The notes under the pieces: generated by a model | The model's database searches: none | Seen by the model: only the letters and a program-made list of their open reading frames with translations | What the model was told of the DNA's origin: nothing | Virus record (IMG/VR): IMGVR_UViG_3300031963_000013 | DNA: 64,000 bases | Strand: one strand, 5' to 3' | Origin: a virus | Program-made: the position numbers and the translations under genes | Shown here: one piece after another, positions 2 through 18,730 of the stretch | Layout: each line of letters opens with the position of its first letter | Numbering within the stretch: position 1 is the stretch's first letter

Positions 2-1429
2 GAAGAGGTGACATCAAACTACGATCCAAACACCACCGCTATAGTATTTATGGTCGGTAAAAAAGACATGGAAGAGGATCCGAGATTTAAAATAGGCCTA
101 AAGAAAGACGGCACTCCTGGGTACTTTAAGAGGTACGAGCCGGGGAAACAGATGGAACCCTTTACAAAGCACGGTTATTTAATAGTTGCTCCTCATGTAT
201 CGCTAAAGACTCCAGACGGACAAGAGATGAGCGGCACAAGCATACGTTCTGTATTATCAAACCCAAAATCAACAGCTGAAGACTTCAAACAGATCTTTGG
301 TTGGTACGATCCCAAGATAGAGCGCATGATCAAATCCAAATTCGAAAAAAAAGATAACGCACCTATGAAAGAAAGCTCAATATCGCTCTTAAACCTGTTA
401 ACCGAAGGAGGCACCGGTGGACATATGGCTCACCCATTCGATCTACCAAGCGTAAACACAGGAAACGACTTAATAAAAACTTTTATATTAGCTGTAAAGT
501 CTTTACAAAAGAATCCTGGTTCGGTTAAAATAGACGGCGTTAACGCTTCTGTGAGACTTGTTGAACTTGACGGTAAGAAACAGTTCGTAATGGACCGTGG
601 ATCTAACAAACCGCTAGATGTAAAAGGCATAACTAAGGCGGATCTAGAAGATAGGTTCGCTCCCGGTCACGGAATGGTTAAGATAGGAGGAGAGGTGTTA
701 GACATATTCAACGAATCTTTACCAAGCATACAGCCGGAACTAGCCAAACTCGGACTCCTGGACAACCCAAACATACTACTAAACATAGAATACGTATCAG
801 GCAAGACAAACGTTCAAGATTACGGTAAAAATTTTTTGGCCATACACGGTCTTCTGAAGATACAGCAAGTGACCGAAAAGAGAAGAGCCGCAAAAGAGAT
901 ACCTTACGACAAAAAAGCGCTACAATCGATGATAAACAAAATGGCACCGATTGCAAAAGAGTACGATTTTGAAATATACGGATCAATACCAGCAAAGGTA
1001 GGAAAAGAACCAAACTTCTCTAGCGAACTGTCAAAATCTTACACTGTAAATTACTCAAAAGGCAAAAAAGAGACAAAGAGTCTAAAAGATTGGTTAAAAA
1101 CTACAAAGATACCGAAAGGCGTGAAGGTCACTCTAGCAGACGGTAAAAAAATAGACGCGTTAAGTAAGCAAGTGTTTGTAGGAATAAAAAACGGAACACC
1201 GCTTGACAAACTTTTAGCTAACGAAGAAGACTACAAAGCGGCCATCGACGGATTCGTAACGTATTTGGCAACCATGCAGCTTGGAGACGCTGTTTTAAAA
1301 TCTATGGATAGTCCTTTAGGCGCAGTAGAAGATCAAGAGGGAGTTGTAATACGTGACAAGAGCATATACGATAAGCCTTTTAAACTAACAGGATCTTTCA
1401 TACTCAGGGGTTTAGCAACATCATTCTAA
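2..1429 (+). CDS. 5'-truncated two-domain protein: C-terminal part of a cytidylyltransferase-like (HIGH superfamily) domain plus a ligase-like covalent nucleotidyltransferase domain (DUF6267-like)
   Basis: Frame is open from the window edge. VFMVGKKD...RF and MSGTSIR fit a CTase-like C-terminus. After LLTE: GHMAHPFD, SVKIDG (KxDG), EGVVIRD and FKLTGSF resemble ligase-superfamily motifs I, IV and V. Confidence 0.6.
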   Translation, partial: EEVTSNYDPNTTAIVFMVGKKDMEEDPRFKIGLKKDGTPGYFKRYEPGKQMEPFTKHGYLIVAPHVSLKTPDGQEMSGTSIRSVLSNPKSTAEDFKQIFGWYDPKIERMIKSKFEKKDNAPMKESSISLLNLLTEGGTGGHMAHPFDLPSVNTGNDLIKTFILAVKSLQKNPGSVKIDGVNASVRLVELDGKKQFVMDRGSNKPLDVKGITKADLEDRFAPGHGMVKIGGEVLDIFNESLPSIQPELAKLGLLDNPNILLNIEYVSGKTNVQDYGKNFLAIHGLLKIQQVTEKRRAAKEIPYDKKALQSMINKMAPIAKEYDFEIYGSIPAKVGKEPNFSSELSKSYTVNYSKGKKETKSLKDWLKTTKIPKGVKVTLADGKKIDALSKQVFVGIKNGTPLDKLLANEEDYKAAIDGFVTYLATMQLGDAVLKSMDSPLGAVEDQEGVVIRDKSIYDKPFKLTGSFILRGLATSF

Positions 1430-1433
1430 ATAA

Positions 1434-2330
1434 ATGGAAGAACAACAAAGAATATCTATATACAAGGACTTTCTCAAGTTCTGTTACGGAGAGTTGAACA
1501 TAAAACACGCTCCCCGTATCAAGATAACTAGGGACAAGAACTTTGTAAAAATAAATTACAGTTTCGGAGGCTACTATCCGCAAGAGAAAGCAATAGTAGT
1601 GTACGACAACAACAGAAACTTAGCGGATTGTCTAAGAACGCTTGCTCACGAACTCGTGCACCACAGCCAAAACGAAAAAGGATCGCTAAAACCAGAATCA
1701 GGAAAAGACGGTAGCGAACACGAGAACGAAGCAAACTCAAAAGCTGGTATCATACTCAGATCTTACGGTAGACAGCACCCGATCATATACGAAAACAAAA
1801 GTTTGGGAATGCTTATGGAAGATCTTAAGAAGTACCAACTTTATTGCGATATGGACGGTGTCCTCTGCGATTTTGATGCGCAGTTCGATAAGTACTTTGG
1901 AATGGGACCCAAAGAGTACATAAAAGAAAGGGGTTTACCGTCTTTCGAATCAGCGATCGAAGACGCAGGCGTAGAGTTTTGGTCGACAATGTCATGGTTT
2001 CCCGGAAGTCAAGAGATTTGGAAAAAAATAGGAAAGCACGGTACGATAATACTTTCCAGCCCAAGTAACTTTACAGACGCTAAAGAAGGCAAAAGACTGT
2101 GGATAGAAAAGAACTTGAATCCAAAACCAAAGGCGATAATATTCAAACAAACAGGGGACAAACACTCGATATTGGCTAACAAAAGCGAAGAAGAGATAAA
2201 GACTTCTGTACTTATAGACGATTACGATGTAAACCTAAAACCGTGGAAAGCAGCTGGCGGTGTGGGAATAAAGCACGAAAATCAAACAGACACATCTCAC
2301 GCATTACAAACGCTAGACAAAAAGAAATAA
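1434..2330 (+). CDS. Fusion of an HExxH metallopeptidase-like domain and a HAD 5'(3')-deoxyribonucleotidase-like domain
   Basis: LRTLAHELVHHSQ...ENEAN in the N-terminal part; LYCDMDGVLCDF, ILSSP, K and LIDD (HAD motifs I-IV) in the C-terminal part. Confidence 0.75.
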   Translation: MEEQQRISIYKDFLKFCYGELNIKHAPRIKITRDKNFVKINYSFGGYYPQEKAIVVYDNNRNLADCLRTLAHELVHHSQNEKGSLKPESGKDGSEHENEANSKAGIILRSYGRQHPIIYENKSLGMLMEDLKKYQLYCDMDGVLCDFDAQFDKYFGMGPKEYIKERGLPSFESAIEDAGVEFWSTMSWFPGSQEIWKKIGKHGTIILSSPSNFTDAKEGKRLWIEKNLNPKPKAIIFKQTGDKHSILANKSEEEIKTSVLIDDYDVNLKPWKAAGGVGIKHENQTDTSHALQTLDKKK

Positions 2331-2331
2331 A

Positions 2332-2442
2332 ATGGCAAGAGCAAAAGAAAGATTGAAACCCAAAAGGAGCAAAAAGTCTAGACTAAAAAATGCTGCAAGA
2401 ATAAAAGCGAATAACGAAATATTAAAAAAATACGCATCATGA
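2332..2442 (+). CDS. Small basic protein (36 aa), not in the ORF track
   Basis: MARAKERLKPKRSKKSRLKNAARIKANNEILKKYAS*; fills the gap exactly and overlaps the next gene by ATGA. Confidence 0.6.
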   Translation: MARAKERLKPKRSKKSRLKNAARIKANNEILKKYAS

Positions 2443-2759
2443 TAAAAATAGAAAGTCTTTTGTTTGAGAATGCTTTCAAATTGATTTCCACAAAACCGCC
2501 GCAGGTTTTTGGCATGAGAAAAGCTGTGTATAAAAGCAAAGACGGTACCACAGTAAGCGTAGTGCATAGCGACTATTCTAGAAGCATGAGAACCGGTTCA
2601 GCACTAAACGGGTATTCTTCAGTGTGGGAAGGAAACAATTTTATAGACGACGTAGAATTCAAAGGAGAAAATCACGTTGAAAAGGCTACTAAATACCTTT
2701 TAAAAAAATACGGTATAACCCACGATGTTTCTAAACTAAAAAAATATCAAAGTAAATGA
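2439..2759 (+). CDS. Hypothetical protein with N-terminal LLFE leader
   Basis: ATGA overlaps at both ends; begins MIKIESLLFE. Confidence 0.7.
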   Translation: MIKIESLLFENAFKLISTKPPQVFGMRKAVYKSKDGTTVSVVHSDYSRSMRTGSALNGYSSVWEGNNFIDDVEFKGENHVEKATKYLLKKYGITHDVSKLKKYQSK

Positions 2760-2995
2760 TTAAATTATTACCAATATTAAAAGAGCACGGAGACCAACCG
2801 CCTTACATGTATTCTAAGTACGGGTTTGGCTGCCACGTGTGTTCTTACTACGAGCTAAAAGAAGGCAAACACTATTGCAACAGTACAGATTACAAGGAAC
2901 ACATGGGAACAGACGAGCTAATTAATCCAGAAACGGGAGAACAGATAGAAGATCCAACTAAGTGGTGTAGCAATTGGTTCGAACCACTAAAATAA
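2756..2995 (+). CDS. Small Cys-rich hypothetical protein with MIKLLPILKE leader
   Basis: CxxC...C...C after the leader; coupled to the upstream gene. Confidence 0.7.
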   Translation: MIKLLPILKEHGDQPPYMYSKYGFGCHVCSYYELKEGKHYCNSTDYKEHMGTDELINPETGEQIEDPTKWCSNWFEPLK

Positions 2996-3014
2996 TAAAA
3001 AATAAAATAATGTT

Positions 3015-3584: not shown

Positions 3585-3592
3585 TATTTATA
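3585..3592 (+). promoter_or_regulatory. Putative late promoter TATTTATA
   Basis: Recurrent intergenic motif, 20 nt before ATG 3613. Confidence 0.6.
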
Positions 3593-4431: not shown

Positions 4432-4436
4432 TTACA

Positions 4437-4808
4437 ATGGAAGCAGTAGGACTTTTCTTGGGTACATTGATGCAGAGCAGAAACCAAGCCCACGTGTATC
4501 ACCTTCAAGTTACAGGACCCGGATCTCACGCAGCGCATCTAGCGTTACAAGCGTACTACGAAGGCATCGTTCCTTTGATAGACGCTTTAGCTGAAGGCAT
4601 ACAGGGACGCTACGGCATAATCAAAGGGTACCAAATGGCAGGAGCGATAAAGGAAGACAACAACTTCGTTTCTTACTTCGAAACTCTTTGTAAATTCGTT
4701 GAAGCGACAAGGAGACAGATACCCCAGGATTCTTACGTTCAGAACCAAGTTGATACAATAGTAGACCTTATAGAAAGCACAAAGTACAAACTAAGAAACC
4801 TTCAGTAA
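4437..4808 (+). CDS. Ferritin/Dps-like protein (DUF5856-like)
   Basis: QAHVYHLQVTG..SHAAHLALQAYYE...DALAE matches the Dps ferroxidase-centre pattern; C-terminal YKL. Confidence 0.7.
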   Translation: MEAVGLFLGTLMQSRNQAHVYHLQVTGPGSHAAHLALQAYYEGIVPLIDALAEGIQGRYGIIKGYQMAGAIKEDNNFVSYFETLCKFVEATRRQIPQDSYVQNQVDTIVDLIESTKYKLRNLQ

Positions 4809-5398
4809 TGTGCAATTGCAATAGAATATCGTTACACGAATCTGTGAATAGGCTTCTGGTGTCAGAGGGCTTGAACTACCACCTTCAAAACAACGTTCCC
4901 ATCAACGAGAACATATACAGACCTCAGTCTACATCGTTTATGGATCTCATAGTCGAAGTAAGAGGTCTTTACGATAGCGGTAAAATAAACTTATCTGAAG
5001 AAGATAGAGACTACTTCGAAGGCACAGACATAGGCAAATTTGGACTTTACGAAGGGATAAAAGTACCGTTAGACTTTCCAATGACGCTAGAGTTTTTGAC
5101 GGAAGTAAAAAAGAAGTCAAAGAAAAAACAGCCCGAACTAAACAAACCAAAGCGTGGAGGACCCAAAAAGTTCTACGTTTACGTTAGGAAACCGGGTGGA
5201 GGAATAAAAAAGGTTACGTTCGGAGACACAACAGGTCTCAGCGCAAAGATCAACAACCCCGAAGCGAGGAAGTCCTTTGCAGCAAGACACAAATGCTCTC
5301 AGGCAAAAGATAAAACGACACCAAAGTATTGGAGCTGTAGACTACCGAGGTACGCAAGCCTATTGGGTCTAAAAAGCAACTTCACAGGATTCTGGTAG
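4808..5398 (+). CDS. Conserved phage protein with a basic C-terminal domain (DUF6321-like)
   Basis: KKFYVYV...VTFGD...ARKSFAARHKC...YWSC. Confidence 0.65.
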   Translation: MCNCNRISLHESVNRLLVSEGLNYHLQNNVPINENIYRPQSTSFMDLIVEVRGLYDSGKINLSEEDRDYFEGTDIGKFGLYEGIKVPLDFPMTLEFLTEVKKKSKKKQPELNKPKRGGPKKFYVYVRKPGGGIKKVTFGDTTGLSAKINNPEARKSFAARHKCSQAKDKTTPKYWSCRLPRYASLLGLKSNFTGFW

Positions 5399-5666: not shown

Positions 5667-5931
5667 GCCTTACATCGATAATCTAGTAGGCAATACAATA
5701 ACACGTACTTTCGATCAATCAATAGATCCAATAGAGCTGATGTGGCACAGGGACCTAAAAGATAGGACTGTAACAGCTACGCACAACACAGACTGGAAGG
5801 TACAATTGGACAACGAACTGCCTACTGTAATAAAAGACAGCATATTTATACCTAAACTGGCGTGGCACCGTGTCATAAAAGGCGCAGGAGCGCTGACAGT
5901 CAAAATAACCGAGCATGAAACAGCAAATTAA
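5659..5931 (+). CDS. Small cupin-like protein
   Basis: ELMWHRD...WKVQLDNELP...FIPKLAWHRVIKG is a two-His cupin-like pattern; ATG 5659 chosen over 5599. Confidence 0.6.
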   Translation: MSRPYIDNLVGNTITRTFDQSIDPIELMWHRDLKDRTVTATHNTDWKVQLDNELPTVIKDSIFIPKLAWHRVIKGAGALTVKITEHETAN

Positions 5932-6199
5932 CGAAGTAAAAAGAATGCAAAAATTAGCTGGTATACTTAAAGAAAACAGCTACGCAGTCTATCAAGAATT
6001 GATTGATGATATAGTAGCCTTAGCGAGTAATAGCCCTTACAGTGAATACGAAGCAACGATAGATTTATTGAAACAAGAAAAAATAGGAAGCGATGAATTT
6101 ATAGAGGACCTAATGAAATATGCAAGAGGTGCTAACTATCATGATATAGCAGACGCATGTGAAGATTTGTTAAGAGGTATACATGCAGAACAAAGCTAA
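5915..6199 (+). CDS. Hypothetical protein with a scaffold-like N-terminal RMQKLAGI peptide
   Basis: MKQQINEVKRMQKLAGILKE, compared with the scaffold C-terminus RWQKIAGIK. Confidence 0.7.
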   Translation: MKQQINEVKRMQKLAGILKENSYAVYQELIDDIVALASNSPYSEYEATIDLLKQEKIGSDEFIEDLMKYARGANYHDIADACEDLLRGIHAEQS

Positions 6200-6212: not shown

Positions 6213-6377
6213 ATGATTAGCTTACTCAGCATACTAAAAATGATAACTGAAGAAAAACCTGGACTTTGGGCAAACATACGAGCAAAAAGAGCTCGCGGTG
6301 AGAAGCCTGCTAAGAAAGGGTCAAAAGCGTACAAATCTGCTGTTAAAGCGGCTAAAGAGATAAACAAAAAGAACTAA
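6213..6377 (+). CDS. Small basic protein (54 aa), not in the ORF track
   Basis: MISLLSILKMITEEKPGLWANIRAKRARGEKPAKKGSKAYKSAVKAAKEINKKN*; TAATG overlap with the next gene. Confidence 0.7.
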   Translation: MISLLSILKMITEEKPGLWANIRAKRARGEKPAKKGSKAYKSAVKAAKEINKKN

Positions 6378-6721
6378 TGAAAAACATATCCCTACAAGCG
6401 TTGGTAAGATCTTTAAGAGAAGAAGTAGATCTTCCAGGTGACCAAGAAAAGATAGACGTAGCAGAACCTAAAGGCAAGATAACTGCGGCTGACTTCAAGA
6501 AGCTTAGATCAATGAAGAAAAAGCATTCTGTAAAAGAAGGTGGAGACCACGAAGTAGCGATGGCTATGAGCAGCTTAAAAGAGATAGTAAGCAACGCAAC
6601 ACAACTCATGCAAAAGTTAGGCGGAGTAGAAAGAAACATTCCAGGTTGGATTCAAGATCACATAACAAATTCGGAGAATTTTATCGAACAAGCAAATCAG
6701 GGTTTTCACGAAATTGAATAA
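6377..6721 (+). CDS. Hypothetical protein, probable internal head protein
   Basis: SLREE leader; KIDV..GKITAADFKKLR; DHEVAMA...PGWIQDHIT. Confidence 0.7.
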   Translation: MKNISLQALVRSLREEVDLPGDQEKIDVAEPKGKITAADFKKLRSMKKKHSVKEGGDHEVAMAMSSLKEIVSNATQLMQKLGGVERNIPGWIQDHITNSENFIEQANQGFHEIE

Positions 6722-6737: not shown

Positions 6738-8678
6738 ATGAATTTGGAAGCTTTAATACTCAAACAAATGCTGTTAGAACAGGACGAAGAGACAGAAAAA
6801 AGGCCCGAAGAAAAAAAGGATTTAACACCTTTCGAAGAGGATCCCATGGGCTTTATACTCAAGAAGTATAGCACGCTCAACGAGTTGCTTACAGAGCTGA
6901 TGACAGGTTCTTTTAAAGAGTATTTAGATGCCATATTCATAGTTGCACCCAAACCAACCACCTTTAAAATACTATTACACAACGGTCAATACTTTTTTTT
7001 AACGTATTTGGGTAAAGCTTACGAAGCGACAATATCTGGTAAGAAGTACTATTTGATGACAACCGGAGAAAAACAGTTGTGCATGCAAGCAATAGCAAGA
7101 CTTCTTAGATTCGGTTCTCCGCTAAAAACAAAAGGACCCGAAGGCGCTGAAAAGGGTACAGAAGGAGTAGAAGACACAAGCGTAGAAGAACCAGAAACCG
7201 AAACACCTCCGGCAGAAGGAGGCGAGGAATTAAAAGAGAACAACATAGCCAAAAGAATAATAGAGAGCTACATACTGAAAGAAGAAAAAGCAGAAGAGGA
7301 TATATTAGCGGCTTTGAAAAAGAACAAAAACGTAGCTTTAATGCAACCAGTAGCTGCAAAGCACCAGGGAGGTTCAAAATATAAAGTGTATTTAAAAGGA
7401 ATAAACCCCACAGACAGAAAAGCAAGAGTTGATCTACTAGCTCAATTAACAGGACTTAGCAACGTAAAAGTTATAAAAAAAGGAGCTAAACTATCTCATG
7501 ATGATTACGCAGAAGTAAGAGTACCATCTGGAACTTTTAAAGTTTATTTTAAGGGGTCCTCAGAGACAGCTACTTCTACAAACGTAAAAGAAGGTCTTGT
7601 GATGTCTTTTTATTACAGTAGCATAGAAGAACCTATAACATTAGAAAACTTTGACTCGTCTGTAAAAGCAGCTATATCAGCCACAAATAGAAATAAAGAT
7701 ATAGACGCTAATCTTAAAGAAGAACTTACAACCTATTTAAGAGGCATACAAAAAAATAAAGACAACGTTAAAACGCTTAATCAACCACTATCTCAAGCGC
7801 TAACGATAAAATCAGCTTATCCTGATGCAAGATTGGTAAGATCTGGCATATTTAACGCGTACAGATCAGAAGCGCAACAACAATTAAAAATGCCTGCAGA
7901 TAAGTGGTGTCCTGGAGATGTGTATGTGTTATTAAATTCCGCAGAAGCAGAAACGATATTAGCATTAGCAAAGGAACAAGACAATCCAGCTTCATTCATA
8001 GAGATACTCAACGATGCATTTAACGAAAACTGGGGATCTAAAGAAGCACCTATGACAGCTGTTTCTCTAAAGTTCGAAAAAGCTCAAGGAGGTAAAGCAA
8101 AAGCTTACTTCGAAAAATTTAGAGCAATAAAAGACGACTATAACCTAACAAAGGACGAGATAAACTACAAAGAAAAGAATTACATAGACGGTATACAGAG
8201 GCTAAGAAAAGTGATTCAAAGCAAAGTAAGAGGTGTAAAAGACATAAAATATATTCTACCCGCTGGAGATAAACTTGAAAAAAACATAGATAAACTTAGA
8301 GGTAAATACGCCGCATTAAAAGCGCTTAATTTCTTCTTTGATCAACTTGATAAGTCAGAATACGACGATGGCCTTGTGGCTCTAGTAGCTTTTGCAATGT
8401 CGCTTTCCGACACTTCTCCTGCGTTTTTCAAAGTAGTTGCAAGTTCATCCGGTCAACCAACAAAACCAGAAACATACCCTCGCGGTGGATCTTTAGCGCT
8501 GTTCATGGAAAACAACAAGATCATGCCTATAGAGATAGTAGACGAACCAAGTTTCGGTGGCCTTAAGATAGACATGACAGTTAGTAAAGGCGGAGATCCC
8601 TACAGAATAAACCTTGTAGCAAGAAACAACGGTGGCGTACAAGGAACAATAGAAATAGCGAGTGTAAAACCACAATAA
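6738..8678 (+). CDS. Multidomain protein with a probable C-terminal PD-(D/E)xK-like nuclease domain
   Basis: N-terminal domain, acidic linker and ILKEE; then NVKEGLV...DKWCPGDVYV...AVSLK, a restriction-endonuclease-like core with SLK in place of ExK. Confidence 0.55.
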   Translation: MNLEALILKQMLLEQDEETEKRPEEKKDLTPFEEDPMGFILKKYSTLNELLTELMTGSFKEYLDAIFIVAPKPTTFKILLHNGQYFFLTYLGKAYEATISGKKYYLMTTGEKQLCMQAIARLLRFGSPLKTKGPEGAEKGTEGVEDTSVEEPETETPPAEGGEELKENNIAKRIIESYILKEEKAEEDILAALKKNKNVALMQPVAAKHQGGSKYKVYLKGINPTDRKARVDLLAQLTGLSNVKVIKKGAKLSHDDYAEVRVPSGTFKVYFKGSSETATSTNVKEGLVMSFYYSSIEEPITLENFDSSVKAAISATNRNKDIDANLKEELTTYLRGIQKNKDNVKTLNQPLSQALTIKSAYPDARLVRSGIFNAYRSEAQQQLKMPADKWCPGDVYVLLNSAEAETILALAKEQDNPASFIEILNDAFNENWGSKEAPMTAVSLKFEKAQGGKAKAYFEKFRAIKDDYNLTKDEINYKEKNYIDGIQRLRKVIQSKVRGVKDIKYILPAGDKLEKNIDKLRGKYAALKALNFFFDQLDKSEYDDGLVALVAFAMSLSDTSPAFFKVVASSSGQPTKPETYPRGGSLALFMENNKIMPIEIVDEPSFGGLKIDMTVSKGGDPYRINLVARNNGGVQGTIEIASVKPQ

Positions 8679-9605: not shown

Positions 9606-9618
9606 AAATTAAAAAAAC

Positions 9619-10023
9619 ATGAAAAGCATCTTCATCTCCATATTCACAATTTTTTTATTATCTTTTGCAGAAAAAGCCAAATCGCAAGACACCATAAAAA
9701 TACCAGTATTTGTAGCTAAACAGATAGCCAAAGATCTAGTATCTTACGATAGCGCTAGAGCAGAGCTGCTTTTATCAAAACAGAGGATAGACTTACTAAA
9801 TTTAAAAGTTGATTCTTACAACAAAAGCATTTCAGTGTATCAAGAGAAAGAGGTTAACTACGTAAATCAGCTAAATTTATCTGCGGCTAAGTTGGACATT
9901 TGGAAGAAAGAATACAACGACTTGGCTAACAGATACAGATCACTGAAGTTAAAAAATACAAGAACACAGATAATAGCTGGTGTATTGGTAGGAACTCTAA
10001 CTTACTTTGCTATAAAACGTTAA
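9619..10023 (+). CDS. Secreted coiled-coil protein with a C-terminal hydrophobic segment (possibly spanin-like)
   Basis: Signal peptide, coiled coil, and IIAGVLVGTLTYFAI at the C-terminus. Confidence 0.55.
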   Translation: MKSIFISIFTIFLLSFAEKAKSQDTIKIPVFVAKQIAKDLVSYDSARAELLLSKQRIDLLNLKVDSYNKSISVYQEKEVNYVNQLNLSAAKLDIWKKEYNDLANRYRSLKLKNTRTQIIAGVLVGTLTYFAIKR

Positions 10024-10029: not shown

Positions 10030-11622
10030 ATGAGTACACCGAACGTTGATTTAAGGGACAGAATAAAAGAGGAGTTTGTTAAGTGCGCCTCTGATCCTGT
10101 GTATTTCATGAGAAAGTACTACATGATACAACACCCCACAAGGGGAAGACAGCTGTTCGATCTTTACGAATTCCAAGAAAAAGTACTTAAGATATACCAA
10201 AACCAAGAGTATGTAATAATAAACAAATCGAGGCAGTTGGGTATATCCACTCTAGTTTCGGCTTATTCGCTATGGATGATGCTGTTTAATAAAGATAAGA
10301 ACGTTCTTGTGGTTGCTACTACGCAATCAACAGCAAAAAACATGGTAACCAAAGTGCGATTTGCGTATCAGAATTTGCCAACCTGGTTAAAAATAGGTCA
10401 CACTGAAGACAACAGGCTTAGTTTAAGGTTAACAAACGGTTCTCAAATAAAAGCTGTATCAGCCGCCGGTGACGCAACACGTTCAGAAGCGGTATCGTTG
10501 CTTGTCATAGACGAAGCTGCGTTCATAGATCGTATCGAAGAGATATTTACCGCAGCTCAACAAACTCTTGCAACAGGCGGTCGATGCATAGCTCTTTCTA
10601 CGCCAAACGGAATAGGTAACTGGTTTCACAAGACATACACCAAAGCCCAGAAGAAAGAAAACAATTTCACCCCCGTAAGCTTGCCCTGGAGAGTACACCC
10701 AGAAAGAGACGAGACTTGGAGAGAGCAACAAACAAAGGAGTTGGGCGTAAGAAACGCAGCACAAGAGTGCGATTGCGATTTCGCCACTTCAGGAAACAGT
10801 TACATAGAACCGGACATACTAACCCACTACGAATTGAACACGGTGAGCGAGCCTTTCGAAAGACGTGGAATGGACAAGGCCCTTTGGATTTGGGAATATC
10901 CCGATCCAGTGAAACACTACATGTTGATAGCTGACGTTGCGCGTGGAGACGGAAGCGACTATTCTGGCTTTCACGTAATAGACATAGAAACAATAACCCA
11001 AGTCGCAGAGTACAAAGCGCAAATAGATACAAGAGAGTACGCGAACATTCTTTTAGCGACAGCGAACGAATACAATCAAGCTTTATTGGTAGTAGAAAAC
11101 GCAAACATAGGTTGGGACGTAGTTCAAACCCTAGTTGAAAGGAATTACACAAACTTGCACTACGGTCACAGGGCAGACAGCGACGGTAGCTTTGAAAAAT
11201 ACGTAGACAGATTCGATAGAGCTGCAGGACTAGTTCCAGGGTTCAGTACAACTCAAAAAACAAGACCGCTTGTACTAGAAAAAATGAGAGATTTTATAGA
11301 AAACAAAGTGTGTACAATAAGATCTGTAAGACTGTTAGAAGAGTTGCGTGTATTTATATGGAAGAACGGTAAACAACAAGCGATGCAGGGGTACAACGAT
11401 GATCTAGTGATGAGCTTCGCAATAGGCATGTACCTTAGAGAGACTTCTTTGAGATTCAAAAAAACAATGAACAACTTGACTAGCGCTACGATAAACAACA
11501 TAAGTAAAACTAGTCAACCAAACTCTTACTATAACCCAAACAGTTACTATAACGATCCTTGGAGCATGAGCATAGCAACTCCACAAGGAAGCGAAAATAT
11601 AGACATTAGCTGGTTAATATAA
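10030..11622 (+). CDS. terL: Terminase large subunit (T4 gp17-like)
   Basis: KSRQLGIST Walker A, LLVIDEAAF Walker B, STPNG motif, ADVARGDGSDYS and DDLVM nuclease motifs. Confidence 0.97.
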   Translation: MSTPNVDLRDRIKEEFVKCASDPVYFMRKYYMIQHPTRGRQLFDLYEFQEKVLKIYQNQEYVIINKSRQLGISTLVSAYSLWMMLFNKDKNVLVVATTQSTAKNMVTKVRFAYQNLPTWLKIGHTEDNRLSLRLTNGSQIKAVSAAGDATRSEAVSLLVIDEAAFIDRIEEIFTAAQQTLATGGRCIALSTPNGIGNWFHKTYTKAQKKENNFTPVSLPWRVHPERDETWREQQTKELGVRNAAQECDCDFATSGNSYIEPDILTHYELNTVSEPFERRGMDKALWIWEYPDPVKHYMLIADVARGDGSDYSGFHVIDIETITQVAEYKAQIDTREYANILLATANEYNQALLVVENANIGWDVVQTLVERNYTNLHYGHRADSDGSFEKYVDRFDRAAGLVPGFSTTQKTRPLVLEKMRDFIENKVCTIRSVRLLEELRVFIWKNGKQQAMQGYNDDLVMSFAIGMYLRETSLRFKKTMNNLTSATINNISKTSQPNSYYNPNSYYNDPWSMSIATPQGSENIDISWLI

Positions 11623-11626
11623 AAAT

Positions 11627-13558
11627 ATGGCAGAAGAACAAAAAAAACCCGAAAACAATCTATTTAGCGCTCTGAGAAGACTATTCTCTACCGATGTAAT
11701 CATTCGTAACGAAGGCGGTGGAATGGTAAAAGTCATCGATAGCGATAAGATACAAACGTCAGGCGTAATACAGACGAACAGTCTTATAGATAGATTCCAT
11801 AAAGTCTACACAACGTCAACAGCGTACGGTGTTAACATGAACTTGGCGCAAAACTACCAATCAGCGAGAGTTCAGATATACGCAGATTACGACGCGATGG
11901 ACACAGACGCTATCATCGCTTCCGCGTTGGACATCATCGCTGACGAGTGTACGTTGAAGAACGAGCAAGGAGAAGTGCTACAGATACGGTCTTCTGACGA
12001 AAACATCCAAAAGCTTCTTTACAACTTGTATTACTCTATACTAAACGTAGAGTTTACTCTGTGGTCTTGGATAAGAAACATGTGTAAATACGGTGATTTT
12101 TACATAAAACTGGAAATAGCAGAGGGTTTCGGAGTGTACAACGTGATCCCGTTCTCTGCCTACAACATAGTTAGACAAGAGGGGTACAACATAAAAAACC
12201 CAAGCGAAGTTAGATTTAAGTACGATCCAAACGCAGCTATCGCATCTACCACAGGTTACGGCTCAGCTTTCAACAACCAAGATACTGGCATCTTCTTCGA
12301 TAACTACGAGATGGCGCATTTCAGACTCACAGGCGACGTTAACTACCTGCCTTACGGTAGATCTTATTTGGAGCCAGCAAGAAAGCTGTTTAAGCAGTAT
12401 ACGCTTATAGAAGACGCCATGTTGATTCACAGGATAGTAAGAGCCCCAGAAAGACGAGTGTTCTACGTTAACGTTGGTGCTATACCTCCAAACGAAGTAG
12501 AAAACTACATGCAAAGGATGATCAATAAGATGAAAAAAACTCCTTTGATAGATCCCCAGACAGGCGATTACAACCAAAAGTACAACGTGCAAAACATGCT
12601 CGAGGACTACTTCATACCTGTAAGAGGCAACGATCAGGCCACAAGAATAGACACAGCGAAGGGTCTGGATTACAACGGTATCGAAGACGTTGCGTACTTT
12701 AGAGAGAAACTTTTTGCAGCGTTGAAGGTACCAAAGGCTTTCATGGGATACGAAAAGGATTTGACAGGTAAAGCGACCCTAGCAGCAGAAGACATACGAT
12801 TTGCAAGAACCGTAGAAAGGATACAAAGGATCATAGTTTCAGAATTGACTAAGATCGGTTTGATCCACCTATACGCTCACGGATACACGAACGAATCAGC
12901 TGCCAACTTCACAATATCGTTAACAAATCCGTCTATCATATACGATCAAGAAAGGATTGCGTTATTCAAAGAAAAGATAGACTTAGCAAGACAAGCGATG
13001 GAAGGTCAATTGTTACCAAGAGACTTCATATACGATAAAGTATTCCACTTCTCTGAAGATCAATACCTAGAGCTGGAAGACATGATACTAGAAGACCAAA
13101 AACGTCTATTCAGATACAAACAAATAGCTGAAGAAGGCAACGATCCATCAGAAACAGGACAAGCGTTCGGTACTCCTCACCAATTGGCCAGTCTTTACGG
13201 AGGCAAAGGTGATATGCCACTTGACGTACCGACAGGATACGATGAAAATAAACCTAAAGACGAATACAAATCCCCAGGCCGTCCCCAAAAGCACAAATCT
13301 ATACGTGGCACAGACGCTAGTTCTTTTGGAAGAGACGCAATGGGTACTTACGATTTAAAATCAAACGCTGAAACAGGAGAAGATAACATGAAACCTGAAT
13401 ACCGTGGAGGTCCTTTAGCTTTCGAAAACTCTAACAGCGAATTTTACAAAAACAAAAAAATGTTAGATTCAATGTTTTCTTCAAAATCAAGAAAAACAAA
13501 ATTATTTGAAGAGAGCGATATATTAAACGAAGATAACATATTAACAGATCCGGAGTAA
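11627..13558 (+). CDS. Portal protein (T4 gp20-like)
   Basis: YGRSYLEPARK...LIEDAMLIHRIVRAPERRVFY, MLEDYFIP and ALKVPK; follows terL. Confidence 0.95.
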   Translation: MAEEQKKPENNLFSALRRLFSTDVIIRNEGGGMVKVIDSDKIQTSGVIQTNSLIDRFHKVYTTSTAYGVNMNLAQNYQSARVQIYADYDAMDTDAIIASALDIIADECTLKNEQGEVLQIRSSDENIQKLLYNLYYSILNVEFTLWSWIRNMCKYGDFYIKLEIAEGFGVYNVIPFSAYNIVRQEGYNIKNPSEVRFKYDPNAAIASTTGYGSAFNNQDTGIFFDNYEMAHFRLTGDVNYLPYGRSYLEPARKLFKQYTLIEDAMLIHRIVRAPERRVFYVNVGAIPPNEVENYMQRMINKMKKTPLIDPQTGDYNQKYNVQNMLEDYFIPVRGNDQATRIDTAKGLDYNGIEDVAYFREKLFAALKVPKAFMGYEKDLTGKATLAAEDIRFARTVERIQRIIVSELTKIGLIHLYAHGYTNESAANFTISLTNPSIIYDQERIALFKEKIDLARQAMEGQLLPRDFIYDKVFHFSEDQYLELEDMILEDQKRLFRYKQIAEEGNDPSETGQAFGTPHQLASLYGGKGDMPLDVPTGYDENKPKDEYKSPGRPQKHKSIRGTDASSFGRDAMGTYDLKSNAETGEDNMKPEYRGGPLAFENSNSEFYKNKKMLDSMFSSKSRKTKLFEESDILNEDNILTDPE

Positions 13559-13567
13559 ATAATCATA

Positions 13568-13575
13568 TATTTATA
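13568..13575 (+). promoter_or_regulatory. Putative late promoter TATTTATA
   Basis: Intergenic, before ATG 13595. Confidence 0.6.
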
Positions 13576-13594
13576 GGTAGAATCTAATCACAAT

Positions 13595-14443
13595 ATGGCA
13601 GTTAAACACAGCAAATATAGAAACACAGCAATTCTGTTTGAATTGTTGGTTAGACAAACAACATCTGACTTACTACAAAACAGGGATTCGAAGTCTGTTA
13701 AGATTTTAAAAAAGTATTTTAGTAATACAGAGTTAGGTAAAGAGTACGCTCTGTACAGTTCGTTTAACACTACGCCCAAGTTAACAGAGGGAAAAGCTGA
13801 AATGTTCATAAGCACAGTTTTGGACCAAAGAAAAAAATTGGATCAAGAAAAATTGGACAGATTGAAGTATAACTTGATAAAAGAGATCAAAAGCAATTAC
13901 GATATCGATAACTTCTTCAAAGCCAAAGTTGACAATTACAAAACTTACGCGTCCATATACACAATATTTGAATCTCACACAAACAAATCTTTCGACGTAA
14001 AGCAAGTACTTTTAAGTAAAATAAACCTACTAGAACATATAACCGAAGAGAACATCGAAAACAAACCGATATCTTCCGTAATGGTAGAGGAGTTTATGAA
14101 AGAGGACAAAGAGATTAGACTTCTAGCTTACAAAATAATAGTTGAAAAATTCAATTCAAAGTATTCGAAATTTTCTGAAAGACAAAAGAACGTTTTAAAA
14201 GAATACATAAACAGTGTATCCGATACAGAATACCTAAAAGCGTATCTTAACAAAACCATCAAAGAAATAAAATCAGAGCTTGTTTCAATCAAAGATTCGG
14301 TTAAAGACGACGTTACAAGGATTAGATTGAAAGAGACTATAAAGCTTTTGGAACCAATAAAGCCAAATCAAAGCATAAAAGACGAGAACATATCTAACGT
14401 CTTACAGTACTTAGAATTGGTAGAAGAGTTAAAGAAACTTTAG
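13595..14443 (+). CDS. Helical head-morphogenesis-region protein
   Basis: KHSKYRNTAILFELLVRQ N-terminus; lies between portal and protease. Confidence 0.7.
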   Translation: MAVKHSKYRNTAILFELLVRQTTSDLLQNRDSKSVKILKKYFSNTELGKEYALYSSFNTTPKLTEGKAEMFISTVLDQRKKLDQEKLDRLKYNLIKEIKSNYDIDNFFKAKVDNYKTYASIYTIFESHTNKSFDVKQVLLSKINLLEHITEENIENKPISSVMVEEFMKEDKEIRLLAYKIIVEKFNSKYSKFSERQKNVLKEYINSVSDTEYLKAYLNKTIKEIKSELVSIKDSVKDDVTRIRLKETIKLLEPIKPNQSIKDENISNVLQYLELVEELKKL

Positions 14444-14454
14444 AATCAAAAAAT

Positions 14455-15615
14455 ATGCAATTTAACAACCAGTTTGCTACAATAAAACTGAGAGAAACCA
14501 TCGCTGAGAACCAGGTTATCTTCTCGATAGACGACCAAAAGATAGATGATTTGTTTTCAAACGAATTTAGAGGCGATGTAGAATACGTACAAGACGGTTC
14601 AGACGTTTACTACGTGATTGATCAAAACGACTTTGAGAAGTTTGTAGACTACGTACAAAGCGTAGGATTGGATTCGAACAACATACACGTTCACGAATAC
14701 TTTAAAGAACAGGGTAACGTTACAGGAGGAGGAGAAGCGTATTTACCGGGGTTGGACGTTCCAGAAAAAAAGTACAAAGGCCAAAACGAAGGAGACGGGT
14801 ACGAAAAAGTAAAGGGATTCAGAGCGGGCCACACTCCGGATAGAGGCGGTTTCCAATACAAAGATTTGTGGGACGTTAACGAAGAGTACGAAACAGACAA
14901 AAAGCTTAAAGTAACTCTTAAAGGTAACATAAACTACAACAAGATAGGCGACGTAACAGACGTTTCGAAAGACGGAAAGTACTACACACTACAATTCAAA
15001 AACGGGAAAACAGCTATATATCACCAATCAGACTTAACTAAACCCGCTGCACAAAAATCTTTTGAAGAGAAACCAAGACTAGACATAAGCGAAGAGGATA
15101 TACAAGAGGCGTACGTACCAGACAACATAAAGAATTTTGCTAAAAGAAAACAGATTACTGGCATTGTAAATCAAGTAGCTCGTTGGGCTGAAAAAGCAGG
15201 TAAACGCATTGTTGGTGGAACAGCTGTTGGTAAAAATTATAGTACATTAATACTAGATTTAACTTATCAAGGCGGAGAAGTACGCATCAATACAGATGAT
15301 GAAACTATTGAAGTTAATGGAGATTGGGTTGACAGCTACCAGGGCTTTGTAGCTGCTTTAAGCGATGAATCACTAAACGAAAACTACCACCGCTTCAAGA
15401 AAGAGACTGTAACCAGAAGCAAAGAGCAGCAGATGCACGAAGCCATTAAATTGGTGCGCAAGAAGCTGTACGAAGCTGAGAAGGTTATGGATTACGTAAA
15501 CACAATGAAAGAAGAGCTTGGACTACGCGAATACAAGGGTCACACAAGCAAACTGATGGAGAAGCTTCAAGTATCCATCTCCGAGATATACAAAAAATAC
15601 AAATCAATAAAGTAA
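14455..15615 (+). CDS. Multidomain probable internal head protein
   Basis: Several segments separated by LRE, VNE, IQE and LNE sites. Confidence 0.65.
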   Translation: MQFNNQFATIKLRETIAENQVIFSIDDQKIDDLFSNEFRGDVEYVQDGSDVYYVIDQNDFEKFVDYVQSVGLDSNNIHVHEYFKEQGNVTGGGEAYLPGLDVPEKKYKGQNEGDGYEKVKGFRAGHTPDRGGFQYKDLWDVNEEYETDKKLKVTLKGNINYNKIGDVTDVSKDGKYYTLQFKNGKTAIYHQSDLTKPAAQKSFEEKPRLDISEEDIQEAYVPDNIKNFAKRKQITGIVNQVARWAEKAGKRIVGGTAVGKNYSTLILDLTYQGGEVRINTDDETIEVNGDWVDSYQGFVAALSDESLNENYHRFKKETVTRSKEQQMHEAIKLVRKKLYEAEKVMDYVNTMKEELGLREYKGHTSKLMEKLQVSISEIYKKYKSIK

Positions 15616-15616
15616 C

Positions 15617-15745
15617 ATGGCAAAATCAAAATCATCAGGAGATAGCCGTAAAGTAACTTTCGGTAAAAGAAAAAAAGGAAGCTCACAAAAATCACACAAC
15701 AAACACGATAGAAAAGAAAAAATGTATCGTGGACAAGGAAGATAA
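15617..15745 (+). CDS. Small basic protein ending YRGQGR (42 aa), not in the ORF track
   Basis: MAKSKSSGDSRKVTFGKRKKGSSQKSHNKHDRKEKMYRGQGR*; this C-terminus resembles small basic proteins of T4-like phages. Confidence 0.75.
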   Translation: MAKSKSSGDSRKVTFGKRKKGSSQKSHNKHDRKEKMYRGQGR

Positions 15746-15753
15746 TATTTATT
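15746..15753 (+). promoter_or_regulatory. Putative late promoter TATTTATT
   Basis: 3 nt before ATG 15757. Confidence 0.55.
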
Positions 15754-15756
15754 GAT

Positions 15757-17724
15757 ATGAACATAACCAAACTATACCAACAGCTACAAGAGGGTAAAAC
15801 GTCCCGCGATTACTTCGTTAAAGAAGCACGCAGACAATTTCCACAGTTCATCAGTCCAGTGACTTCTTTTAAAGACGCTGTGAACATACTAAAAGGAAAA
15901 AGACTAGTATCAGAGAACGTAACCAAAGAGGTAAGCGGTGCATTCTTCGATGCTCCAACTTTTAAAAACGAATTACAAACCACCGAAGAATCTTTACAGG
16001 AGATAAAGGGCGTAGACGAAGAACTTCTTGATATAGTGCTTAAGTACGTTAAAGATCCTGACGAAGCTATACAGTATATAAAGAGGGGAATGCCGGATTG
16101 GTTAGAAGCTAATCTAGATAGAGACGAAGATTATAAGAATTATTTAAAAAGTACGAGAGGAGTAGATCTATACCCCGGAAACATGGGAGATGAGATGTCT
16201 GCTCCTAGAGAAGGAAAAATAAACGAAGCCCACAAACTTGACACAGAGCAGATATTGGATCGCATGTCTCCTTACGCTGTTAGAAAGGGCATAGAGTTAG
16301 AGTTGAAGAAAGAAAAGGTGATAGACAACACTACACTCAATAAAATCAAGACCCGTGTCGCTAAGAAGCTTCAAAAAAATAAAAACGCTTACGAAGACCA
16401 AGTTTTCTCAAACGTTAAAGAAATAGACAAAAAAGATAAGCAATTAGAAACAAAGGAAGTAACCCAAGAGTTGAACGATAAACACAACTCAATGAAAAAA
16501 ATTAAGGGGTACAAAGAAGAGAAGGCAAACACAAAAGCTTCTAAGAAAGAAAACAGAAAGGGAAAACCTAAAGGCGTAAAAGTGATGCCTGACAAAGGCG
16601 TTACTGGATCTGAAAAGATATTAAAAGAAGACATTCAGGATAGAGCAGACGCTATTAATAGGTTCGCTAGACTAGTTAAATCTAAAAACATCGAAGATAT
16701 AAAAAACGAATTAGAAGCGATAGTACAGTTTCCAGAACAGAGCAGTATTACGCCTAGTGAAGCAACAAAGATAATTAAAAAATATTGCACACCAGAAGAA
16801 GCTCAGCAGATATTAGACGACATAAATCAACCAATGACCGATCCAGCTGGTGGCAGCGGTTTATCTTCTCATCTTGAAGAGGATGAATTTAGAGCACCAA
16901 CAAACAAACCGTTGGTTAACAAAGAAGAGGTGGACGACCAAGAATTGGAAGCATTAAAAATGAAAGTTATAGGTTGGTATAAAAAAAATTATACTAATTC
17001 AAAATCACCGCTCGTTTCAAAATGGGCAACTGAATTTGAGGCAGACGTAAACAGAGCTACAAACAAACAAGAAATCAAACAAGTCGTAGATAGCATATTG
17101 ATGGGAGATACAACCACCGCTATGACTAACTTGGGTTTAAACGAAGACAAAGCGGAGGTGTTGAACAATATAAAAGAGTTTTTACAAGAGTACAGCTACT
17201 TGGAATACCACCAAGGCATGGAAGTAAACACACCAGACGGTCCCGGAGTAGTTAAAGAAATAATGGGCGGTACGTTAACTATAGAGTTGGAAGACAGCGC
17301 TTTAAGAGACTATCAGATGAACGTGATAAACAAAGCAACAACAGATAGTAAAGAACAACCAAAACAAACACCGCAAGCCGCAGCAGTCGACAAAGACAAA
17401 GAAGATAGGGACGCAGCATTCTCAAAGTTTCCTTTTGGCAACCTTGGCAGCGTAAAGGGCCCAGACACTGGAATAAAGAAAGAGGCCTACAAGAACATGA
17501 CACACGAAGAGAAACTTAAAGCGATAATGGAAAAAGTTCAAGCGATGGAAGAGGGCGAAAAGAAACACAAGGCTTTGGACATTGTAAAGAAGAAGTTGAA
17601 AGAGGCTACAAAAATCCACGCAGGAGGAGAAGTTTTTTTTAAGAAAGATTCAGAAGTACCAGGATTTGAAGCTGATCTAAAATCAGCAGGAGTTAAATAC
17701 ACAAAAGAGAGAGTAGCATCATGA
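15757..17724 (+). CDS. Large Lys/Glu-rich probable internal head (poly)protein
   Basis: Many (L/I/V)xE sites (LQE, VSE, INE, LKE, LNE); directly upstream of the prohead protease. Confidence 0.65.
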   Translation: MNITKLYQQLQEGKTSRDYFVKEARRQFPQFISPVTSFKDAVNILKGKRLVSENVTKEVSGAFFDAPTFKNELQTTEESLQEIKGVDEELLDIVLKYVKDPDEAIQYIKRGMPDWLEANLDRDEDYKNYLKSTRGVDLYPGNMGDEMSAPREGKINEAHKLDTEQILDRMSPYAVRKGIELELKKEKVIDNTTLNKIKTRVAKKLQKNKNAYEDQVFSNVKEIDKKDKQLETKEVTQELNDKHNSMKKIKGYKEEKANTKASKKENRKGKPKGVKVMPDKGVTGSEKILKEDIQDRADAINRFARLVKSKNIEDIKNELEAIVQFPEQSSITPSEATKIIKKYCTPEEAQQILDDINQPMTDPAGGSGLSSHLEEDEFRAPTNKPLVNKEEVDDQELEALKMKVIGWYKKNYTNSKSPLVSKWATEFEADVNRATNKQEIKQVVDSILMGDTTTAMTNLGLNEDKAEVLNNIKEFLQEYSYLEYHQGMEVNTPDGPGVVKEIMGGTLTIELEDSALRDYQMNVINKATTDSKEQPKQTPQAAAVDKDKEDRDAAFSKFPFGNLGSVKGPDTGIKKEAYKNMTHEEKLKAIMEKVQAMEEGEKKHKALDIVKKKLKEATKIHAGGEVFFKKDSEVPGFEADLKSAGVKYTKERVAS

Positions 17725-18356
17725 GCAAACAACTTTTAATAGAGCATTCTTTTTTTACACCAACTATTAACTTACACGAGGGATTAAAAAACCAAAACGG
17801 TAACCTTATAGTTAGGGGTAAAGTGCAAGCTAGCGACAAACCAAACGCAAACCGCAGAGTGTATCCTTACGAAACTCTGTTCGAACAGGTTAAAAAATAC
17901 GTCGACGGTCCTATAAAAGAGAAGCGTGCGCTCGGAGAACTGGATCACCCAGAGAGCTCTATCATAAATTTGAAAAACGTTTCTCACAACATACTGGATC
18001 TTTGGTGGGAAGGTAAAGACGTTTTCGGTACTATCGAAATACTGCCTACTCCCTCTGGTAACATACTCAAAGAGCTTTTTTTAAACAACATAACTGTAGG
18101 CATATCCTCAAGGGCTTTGGGTTCAACCACTCCCATGGCAGAAGGCTTAGTGAAAGTTGAAGAAGATTTGGAATTGATATGTTGGGACTTTGTTAGTCAA
18201 CCCTCAACCTACGGTTCTTACATGAAACCTGTTAACGGTTTAAGAGAGTCTTACGACGCAACAATCATAACTCAAACGCAAAACAAATACACAAACGTTA
18301 ACAATTTGATGAGAGACATCATATGTGAAATGTCGGGTGTATGTTGCATAAACTAA
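17721..18356 (+). CDS. Prohead core protease (T4 gp21-like)
   Basis: NANRRVYP, ALGELDHP, VSH, GISSRALGS and WDFVSQPST. Confidence 0.95.
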   Translation: MSKQLLIEHSFFTPTINLHEGLKNQNGNLIVRGKVQASDKPNANRRVYPYETLFEQVKKYVDGPIKEKRALGELDHPESSIINLKNVSHNILDLWWEGKDVFGTIEILPTPSGNILKELFLNNITVGISSRALGSTTPMAEGLVKVEEDLELICWDFVSQPSTYGSYMKPVNGLRESYDATIITQTQNKYTNVNNLMRDIICEMSGVCCIN

Positions 18357-18361
18357 TAAAA

Positions 18362-18730
18362 ATGAAACTATTTGAAATATTAAGCGAAGAGTTTTCAGCA
18401 AACGATCCGGTGTTAATGGCTCTTAGAGCTGCTAAAGATACTAGACAAAAAAACTTAAAAGCCTACGCCGCTAGTATGAAAAAAAGGGTGTATGGAAAGA
18501 AGAGAGAAGACCTCGTAGACAGATTAGAAACTCTTAACGATGATCTTTTGGATTTGTATAAACAAAAAAAGCAAGCGTTTATAGACATGGAATTAGACGC
18601 GGGTGAGAAAGGAAGTTCGTGGAGCGACCAAGATGCTAACGAATACGGTGATATGCTAAACAGCATTGATGAAAAAATAGACTCTTTGATAAAAACTAGA
18701 CAAAAGATTGAAATAGCTTTATCGTACTAA
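18362..18730 (+). CDS. Coiled-coil hypothetical protein with MKLFEILSEE leader
   Basis: ATG 18362 just after the protease stop. Confidence 0.65.
   Translation: MKLFEILSEEFSANDPVLMALRAAKDTRQKNLKAYAASMKKRVYGKKREDLVDRLETLNDDLLDLYKQKKQAFIDMELDAGEKGSSWSDQDANEYGDMLNSIDEKIDSLIKTRQKIEIALSY

Follow-up and report, generated by a model that had tools for sequence, protein, structure and literature searches.

Which proteins travel in a phage head together with the DNA, and how are they addressed to it? In bacteriophage T4, short propeptides, a capsid-targeting sequence (CTS) and cleavage after Glu have been described (PMC9026906, PMC3012670). The question is raised anew by a 64,000-nucleotide stretch of the IMG/VR record IMGVR_UViG_3300031963_000013, here called the window, which comes from an uncultured T4-related phage of freshwater bacteria. 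Many open reading frames (ORFs) around its head genes start with a short leader ending in (L/I)-x-E, and similar sites fall at the joints between domains of larger proteins. The first-pass annotation took these for sites of the prohead protease and proposed that more than a dozen proteins are packaged, cut into independent enzymes during head maturation and perhaps injected. We find it probable, on comparative sequence evidence, that the phage puts T4-style targeting and cleavage peptides on cargo and at multidomain joints; docking, cleavage, retention and injection are steps that we infer. What stands of the earlier interpretation is the pattern, its enrichment, conservation, modularity and placement in linkers, together with a protease and propeptides homologous to those of T4. 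A nuclease-like label given to one domain is left without support.

All genes of the window lie on the + strand, as do all features given below. Its T4-type head module (10030-21633) comprises terminase, portal, three unassigned ORFs, protease, a small ORF, scaffold and capsid, and the order portal, core genes, protease, scaffold, capsid is that of T4. Pfam matches identify the large terminase (Terminase_6N, 2e-13), the portal (Portal_T4, 2.1e-74), the prohead protease (Peptidase_S77, the gp21 family, 4.3e-24) and the major capsid protein (Gp23, 3.7e-78, beginning at residue 83). A megablast search of phage records returned no close relative at the DNA level. Because the nearest cultured relatives by capsid protein are Flavobacterium phage immuto (54% identity), Microcystis phage Mel-JY01 and Rhodothermus phage RM378, we place the phage, by sequence, among the myophages of the 'far-T4' group. 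The head region of RM378 is organised differently. For comparison we searched IMG/VR with the terminase, which gave at least 598 relatives, and kept 80 loci.

Are the leaders more than a by-product of composition? Every leader quoted by the first-pass annotation is found at an ORF start (2439, 2756, 6213, 6377, 6738 and 18362, besides the capsid gene at 19960 and the protease gene at 17721). We counted as a leader any [LI]xE with its Glu at residue 5-16 and took the composition-corrected expectation from each protein's own internal windows or shuffles, with Poisson-binomial P values. On the head side (24 ORFs, 1434-21633), 16 ORFs carry such a leader where 3.6-4.0 are expected (P = 1e-9 against internal windows, 7e-9 against shuffles). 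On the tail side (38 ORFs, 21807-62443) there are three, with about three expected (P about 0.6). The leaders are 8-20 residues long. T4 itself served as a positive control: gp67, gp68, gp21, gp22 and gp24 all have such sites in their first 10-20 residues. These counts support the view that (L/I)-x-E leaders, as sequence features, are specific to head-side genes. About 10-13 candidates remain besides capsid, scaffold and protease, so that 'more than a dozen' packaged proteins is fair as a count of candidates and as nothing beyond that.

The leaders are also conserved in a particular way. Among orthologues of the 646-, 114-, 54- and 79-residue proteins introduced below, the position of [LI]xE is constant and the other leader residues vary. 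Within the site, P3 (L/I) and P1 (E) are constant and P2 is variable, which is the T4 gp21 rule. Gene families are bimodal for a strict leader: the large terminase (TerL) never has one (0/80), nor has the portal (0/77), nor have most other families, and a few leader families have it in 93-100% of their members. One kind of leader, the class-1 tag 'M-I-K-L..I-L-x-E', heads several unrelated bodies and is about 400 times commoner at N-termini than internally, for a pattern that was defined post hoc.

Might such peptides be unconnected with the protease? They could be generic amphipathic helices, serving oligomerisation or membrane contact or reflecting a bias at start codons, in small proteins rich in Lys, Glu and Leu. 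The motif is short and degenerate, and the head-side proteins are indeed K-, E- and L-rich. The enrichment nevertheless holds under nulls drawn from each protein's own composition, the pattern is missing from the phage's tail-side genes, and free variation at P2 between fixed P3 and P1 is what the gp21 rule would leave. Moreover, the pattern recurs in the capsid and protease propeptides, whose T4 homologues are cleaved; sites crowd the scaffold; and the scaffold C-terminus is mimicked by one tag. We regard an origin unconnected with proteolysis as very improbable.

Does the protease of this phage keep the T4 specificity? The exact wording of the T4 rule is cleavage after the Glu of L/I-x-E. 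The prohead protease (17721..18356) has candidate self-cleavage sites at LLIE (17733-17744) and LHE (17769-17780); its N-terminal Q-L-L-I-E is identical to that of T4 gp21, and every relative, immuto among them, has the second site. The major capsid protein (19960..21633) begins with a 62-residue propeptide (19960-20145) whose four sites, E11, E38, E53 and E62, are all conserved in 14 orthologues. In common with T4 gp23, which is cut after E65, this propeptide has 'K-W-x-K..L-L-E-G', then 'x-x-E-N-Q' and, ahead of a mature end rich in Gly, a final site. In their motifs the protease and capsid propeptides match T4 gp21, gp23 and gp24. Because these propeptides are homologous to ones that T4 cleaves, we infer that the phage's protease keeps the (L/I)-x-E rule; this homology is the best available argument. 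Between the two genes lies that of the acidic scaffold protein (18916..19938), with 17 [LI]xE sites and a C-terminus, R-W-Q-K-I-A-G-I-K, encoded at 19909-19935.

This scaffold C-terminus reappears at the start of other proteins. The motif R-[MW]-Q-K-[LI]-A-G-I has two occurrences, and no more, among the proteins of the window, where 0.006 would be expected: at the extreme C-terminus of the scaffold and at the N-terminus of a 94-residue protein (5915..6199), whose leader (5915-5974) has R-M-Q-K-L-A-G-I and then LKE. Across 81 related loci, where chance would give 0.25, there are 30 matches: 13 at scaffold C-termini and 17 at the N-termini of small proteins, always with x-x-E behind, and none at other positions. 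All 13 scaffolds found in relatives have the motif, as does that of Mel-JY01. Because it is found only at scaffold C-termini and cargo N-termini, we read the leader as a putative docking peptide of the scaffold that cargo would have borrowed as a tag. Orthologues of the 94-residue protein resemble it over residues 1-21 and no further. Between genomes, the scaffold C-terminus and its mimic vary too little for an analysis of co-variation.

Scaffolds of the P22 type have a conserved short C-terminal peptide that binds the coat protein; here the C-terminal peptide of the scaffold would be reused as a tag. The likeness is limited in that T4-type scaffolds are not known to bind the capsid protein by such a peptide, and the papers searched do not describe its reuse as an N-terminal cargo tag. 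Nor did we find a paper on a scaffold-mimic tag or on tag-plus-joint cargo in far-T4 phages, and the paper on the far-T4 group (PMC4360716) does not mention proteases, propeptides or internal proteins.

The second part of the question concerns the joints. The flagship cargo candidate is a protein of 646 residues (6738..8678) that consists of a leader (6738-6779, ending LLE), an N-terminal module (N-module, residues 30-126), an acidic disordered linker, a joint and a C-domain of 464 residues. The junction sites noted earlier, ELKE, RIIE and YILKE, are present across 7227-7283. In an AlphaFold2 model (predicted local distance difference test score, pLDDT, 78) the leader forms a helix at 3-16, disorder follows at 15-27, and the N-module is separated by further disorder (127-166) and a helix (167-194) from the large C-domain. 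The sites are at E14, E167, E176 and E182.

Relatives make this arrangement a family trait. The N-module forms 413 clusters at 50% identity and is mostly N-terminal in proteins 100-716 residues long. Every family member with a C-terminal extension (49/49) has at least two clustered [LI]xE sites at the joint, just past the acidic Gly/Glu/Pro linker, and stand-alone N-modules end before the joint. The C-domains behind the conserved N-module fall into at least 10 unrelated BLAST clusters, and the window's own C-domain stands, in marine phages, behind a different N-module, 'K-G-Y-P-D-M-N-N..L-L-E'. A recurring N-terminal module of the form 'K-F-x-K-G-Y-P-D-M-N-N-x-x-D..L-L-E' is found in three marine homologues of the 464-residue C-domain (P0043, P0080 and P0093) and in immuto gp078 (L001, 9579-10640), and perhaps represents a third type of module for targeting.

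What do these domains do? A sequence search of the PDB found no match to the 464-residue C-domain, and neither Pfam nor PHROGs matched any of nine variable C-domains taken from relatives. A fold search with the full-length model likened residues 163-276 to the nucleotidyltransferase core of Pol-beta, at a borderline Z of about 8, and no conserved acidic residue is found among the invariant alignment columns of this subdomain. The label 'nuclease-like' finds no support here: no nuclease appears among the fold matches of the full-length model, and the invariant D394 and S443-L-K445 are at most suggestive of PD-(D/E)xK. The N-module matches a frataxin-like sandwich, likewise at a borderline score (Z 6.3). 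We would sooner see in it a long targeting propeptide than an enzyme in its own right.

Two further multidomain proteins are encoded at the start of the window. ORF1 (2..1429) is the C-terminal 475 residues of a two-domain protein, whose full-length version (P0121) has 553; an NMNAT-like domain and an RNA-ligase-like domain (KxDG, DUF6267-like) are joined by a linker. The LLTE junction is present at 395-406, and in the AlphaFold2 model (pLDDT 87) it falls, as L-L-T-E213, in a disordered segment, residues 195-217. The annotation had called the two domains cytidylyltransferase-like (CTase-like) and ligase-like, and fold matches bear this out. A sequence search of the PDB found no match to ORF1. 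Its N-domain, by fold, matches NMN/NaMN-adenylyltransferase (NMNAT; Z 11.7 over 147 aligned residues; Foldseek 4e-6). The C-domain matches T4 Rnl1 (Z 8.1, root-mean-square deviation 4.0, 188 aligned residues) and no fewer than 10 further ligases of RNA or DNA (Z 5.8-7.5), and its motif I, K254-I-D-G257, is invariant in 48 sequences. The models therewith support a ligase-superfamily adenylyltransferase fold for this domain. In nearly all of 120 homologues, which have differing N-terminal partners, [LIV]xE stands directly before G-G-x-G-G-H-M. A stand-alone ligase-like protein (P0132) starts with a 10-residue leader at the position of the joint, and extra [LI]xE sites recur at a spacing of 8-12 residues in the otherwise variable linkers of the family.

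The next gene (1434..2330) encodes an HExxH peptidase-like domain and an NT5C/HAD deoxyribonucleotidase, joined by the sites IIYE (1782-1793) and MLME (1809-1820), both as first described. The nucleotidase identity is supported by phrog_2643 (9e-21), with a weak NT5C match in Pfam; the grounds for 'peptidase' are weak matches and the HExxH motif. The IYE joint is invariant in 17 relatives, and eight of 10 fused forms have a second [LI]xE 8-12 residues after it. Stand-alone HExxH proteins end in a leader-like tail, and the stand-alone NT5C of immuto starts with a leader ending L-L-L-E. NMNAT-like, RNA-ligase-like, HExxH and NT5C nucleotidase domains are thus encoded back to back at 2-2330, a set reminiscent of repair, either NAD-related or of RNA/tRNA. 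A single immuto protein of 907 residues contains the CTase-like and HExxH modules, and NT5C is separate, just downstream.

How much can be said of the joints from one genome? The first-pass annotation asked that sites be concentrated in linkers beyond the Lys/Glu-rich background. With linkers defined by the AlphaFold2 models, the 646-residue protein has four of its eight [LI]xE sites in 12% of its length (P 0.01) and ORF1 has one of two in 5%; the combined P of 0.008 is a modest enrichment. A scan for internal sites with a position-specific scoring matrix made from orthologue leaders gave no more than two hits at a cutoff of less than one expected false positive, and so did not discriminate. 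Internal sites from this genome alone are weak evidence, and the main evidence for the joints, which is strong at the level of sequence, is the comparison with relatives.

A precedent from virions comes from the T4-like cyanophage S-CREM2. Mass spectrometry detected in its particles a cytidylyltransferase and the neighbouring proteins gp155, gp156 and gp160 (PMC10665884), and we find an [LI]xE leader at the start of all four. A virion-detected protein of the cytidylyltransferase family, together with leader-bearing neighbours, resembles the situation in the window. The S-CREM2 proteins differ in not being detectably homologous to proteins of the window, and the paper does not discuss leaders or cleavage (PMC10665884).

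Several points weigh against the reading that cargo and joints carry T4-style peptides. For this phage and its close relatives the case is built from sequence and models, and the S-CREM2 cytidylyltransferase has no detectable homology to ORF1. Chance must account for some of the 16 head-side leaders, among them those of the terminase, a membrane protein and a DenV-like protein. The degeneracy of the tag prevents sites from being called in a single genome, and in most orthologues of the 386-residue core protein (14455-15615) the site is a non-canonical L-R-x-E. The nearly invariant E-G-G before the ligase-like domain may, from its conservation, be part of that fold. The whole-protein density of [LI]xE in the three multidomain ORFs is not above expectation; density therefore lends no support, and only placement and conservation count. 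NT5C and NMNAT-like enzymes are elsewhere ordinary cytoplasmic enzymes of phages.

A rival explanation is that only the short N-terminal leaders are real, and the NMNAT-like/ligase-like and HExxH/NT5C proteins are uncut cytoplasmic fusions, as such enzymes are in other phages, whose joints are linker helices or the edge of a domain. Neither fusion has an N-terminal leader, and in both the density of [LI]xE does not exceed expectation. The residues E-G-G-x-x-G-H-M form a single block that hardly varies, and the invariant IYE could be the mere end of the HExxH fold. On the other hand, domains that stand downstream in the fusions start, when they stand alone (P0132 and the immuto NT5C), with a leader exactly at the joint position, and the stand-alone HExxH proteins end in a leader-like tail. 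Extra sites recur at 8-12-residue spacing in variable linkers, E213 has its place within a disordered segment, and the cytidylyltransferase-like protein of Mel-JY01 has an N-terminal leader of its own. We hold uncut fusions to be unlikely, if well within reason.

How, then, would tags and joints work if they are what we think them to be? About ten non-shell proteins begin with a short amphipathic propeptide that ends in (L/I)-x-E and would act like the T4 CTS. The propeptide would dock its protein onto the scaffold core or the inner surface of the prohead shell, and the gp21-family protease, once activated, would cut after Glu and free the body inside the head. At least two classes of tag would exist: a T4-CTS-like helix, 'M-I-K-L..IL-x-E', and a copy of the conserved peptide at the scaffold C-terminus, on this view a competitor for the site at which the scaffold itself docks. 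Multidomain proteins would have the same kind of peptide, with at least two cut sites, in a disordered linker. Since a joint peptide with multiple cut sites would lie in such a linker, maturation would part a conserved carrier or enzyme domain from an exchangeable one downstream. Small fragments would be lost from the head, and folded products of 8-68 kDa would remain with the DNA, their likely fate being ejection into the host.

Must cleaved proteins remain in the head? The leader proteins might instead be components of the prohead core, like T4 gp67, gp68 and gp22, that are targeted, then cut, and whose fragments are expelled before the DNA is packaged, leaving no payload. Three ORFs between portal and protease (13595-14443, 14455-15615 and 15757-17724) occupy the position of T4 gp67/gp68 and have conserved N-terminal sites (ILFE, KLRE and QLQE/VKE/VSE, respectively); we treat them, from their sequences, as candidates for either prohead-core or cargo proteins. 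Several leader proteins are dense in sites, as the scaffold is; for the first two of these ORFs the [LI]xE density has z = 3.1 and 2.8. Many leader proteins are small and non-enzymatic, and in giant phages head-protein propeptides are cleared from the capsid (PMC10052503). Against this, the predicted products of 8-68 kDa with few internal sites, such as the 464-residue C-domain, are too large for the pores of the shell, and hypervariable C-domains on a conserved carrier are expected of host-directed effectors, not of scaffolding. The T4 proteins IP* and Alt* and the ejection proteins of SPN3US are, moreover, retained and ejected (PMC3012670, PMC10052503). That all leader proteins are expelled core components seems to us improbable.

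A retained and ejected cargo would have its closest model in T4 IPI, IPII, IPIII and Alt with gp21, since protease, portal, capsid protein and capsid propeptide are all homologous here. As in T4, N-terminal propeptides of 9-20 residues ending in (L/I)-x-E stand on unrelated proteins, with diverse bodies behind a shared tag, and the genes lie in or next to the head module. T4 differs in having about six such non-shell proteins, against the 10-13 candidates here, and the tags of the window are not homologous in sequence to M-K-T-Y-Q-E-F-I-A-E. What goes beyond T4, the scaffold-copy tag, the double-site peptides inside multidomain proteins and the conserved carrier of 100 residues before swappable C-domains, is known here from sequence.

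Ejection and inner-body proteins of phiKZ, 201phi2-1 and SPN3US have long propeptides (111-254 residues) with several redundant sites, are cut after Glu and keep their mature C-terminus in the head (PMC10052503, PMC9026906). These are jumbo phages with an inner body; their motif is (S/A/G)-x-E, not (L/I)-x-E, and neither a shared short tag nor polymorphic swapping of C-domains has been described for them. MuF polymorphic toxins and polyvalent proteins likewise join a conserved N-terminal module to variable C-domains and are read as packaged and injected (PMC5576092, PMC9503650). The proteins of the window differ in that they would be targeted by a short peptide or a small unrelated module and released by the prohead protease at defined joints, in lytic T4-type phages; neither the 646-residue protein nor nine members of its family have a MuF or portal match in Pfam, and we recognised no toxin domain or immunity gene.

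How far might such a system extend? Tentatively, and with more doubt than belief, we suggest that far-T4 phages, hundreds of freshwater and marine lineages, have a plug-in system of 'address labels' for cargo, with interchangeable tags and cuttable joint cassettes. The labels would be the CTS-like helix, the copy of the scaffold docking peptide and the 100-residue carrier, and unrelated domains would be shuffled behind them into an injected payload that includes enzymes of the NAD- or RNA-repair type (NMNAT-like, RNA-ligase-like, nucleotidase). If this is true, lytic phages would have polymorphic effector delivery comparable to bacterial polymorphic toxins, probably directed against host defences in the first seconds of infection. 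On the reading of tags and joints given above, head loading by removable tags would be no peculiarity of T-even phages, being widespread and much more elaborate in abundant environmental ones. It would then be possible to predict from sequence which 'hypothetical' proteins enter with the DNA, and these would be prime anti-defence candidates. The mosaic multidomain ORFs near head genes would be explained, new capsid-packaging tags would be at hand, the copy of the scaffold docking peptide among them, and the role of the scaffold C-terminus in T4-type assembly would become directly testable.

What are the remaining leader-bearing proteins? In mature form they are predicted to span 4.5-68 kDa, some being basic and others acidic, and most of the proteins have no Pfam or PHROG match. 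'Independent enzymes' might suit the ligase-like, NMNAT-like and NT5C domains and does not extend to the majority, which are small, lack a recognised function and are therefore not to be called enzymes. A protein of 106 residues (2439..2759; 10-residue leader, 2439-2468, ending LFE) has no Pfam or PHROG family and no orthologue among the 80 loci. It is followed by a Cys-containing protein of 79 residues (2756..2995; 10-residue leader, 2756-2785, ending LKE), whose leader has the form M-I-[KS]-L..[IL]L-x-E in all five orthologues. A basic protein of 196 residues (4808..5398) has N-terminal sites LHE (4829-4840) and VSE (4856-4867), both present in full-length orthologues; its [LI]xE density is high (z = 3.6), and its C-terminal module is joined elsewhere to other N-terminal parts.

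Next to the gene for the 94-residue protein lies one for 54 residues (6213..6377), in which a 13-residue leader (6213-6251, ending ITE) precedes a very basic body of 41 residues (pI 10.7). In relatives this body is also found behind other leader-bearing modules: 'G-L-W-A-N-I-x-A-K-R-x-R-G-E-K-P' (6252-6374 in the window) stands in loci L008, L064 and L007 behind a leader-bearing, zinc-ribbon-like module (C-x-x-C-G-W...H-K-C-G). By sequence, these fusions are a further case of module shuffling. A 114-residue protein follows (6377..6721), with a 15-residue leader (6377-6421) ending LRE. The last of the set, 122 residues long and encoded between protease and scaffold (18362..18730), has a 9-residue leader ending LSE (18377-18388); the gene at its position in relatives has the tag L-K-K-L-A-G-L-L-S-E instead.

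Another peptide is shared between head proteins. G-A-T-F-T-P-G-T-G-E-Q follows directly on the predicted maturation site of the capsid protein (20146-20220) and also, in relatives, just past the leader of the 386-residue core-protein family (25 matches, in L011, L013, L017, L022, L025 and others); the window's own copy in that family (14455-15615) is degenerate. This may, to judge from the sequences, be a second case of a head protein copying the peptide of another. In Mel-JY01 a gene for ribosomal protein S21 is annotated within the head module, between the protease and scaffold region (17110-17337 of L084).

Are cargo genes expressed together with structural ones? The sequence T-A-T-T-T-A-T-A lies 12-50 nucleotides upstream of 13 gene starts (copies at 3585, 6726, 9209, 13568, 21818, 36804, 43515, 45865, 49216, 50000, 53088, 56293 and 57053); the window has 16 matches against 5.5 expected, 15 of them on one strand. 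Among the 13 are the cargo genes at 3613, 6738 and 13595, which have the upstream motif TATTTATA in common with tail genes. From its placement T-A-T-T-T-A-T-A is a candidate promoter of the phage, probably a late one, before cargo, lysis-like and tail genes alike; its presence before both cargo and tail genes fits a common late transcription class. To judge by the copy at 21818, the start of phoH would be the ATG near 21843 and not 21807. Two groups of small ORFs, at 9234-10023 between the cargo block and the terminase and at 49228-50624 after the tail genes, encode proteins that open with a transmembrane segment or a signal-peptide/lipoprotein-like stretch; both groups are likely lysis or spanin-type genes.

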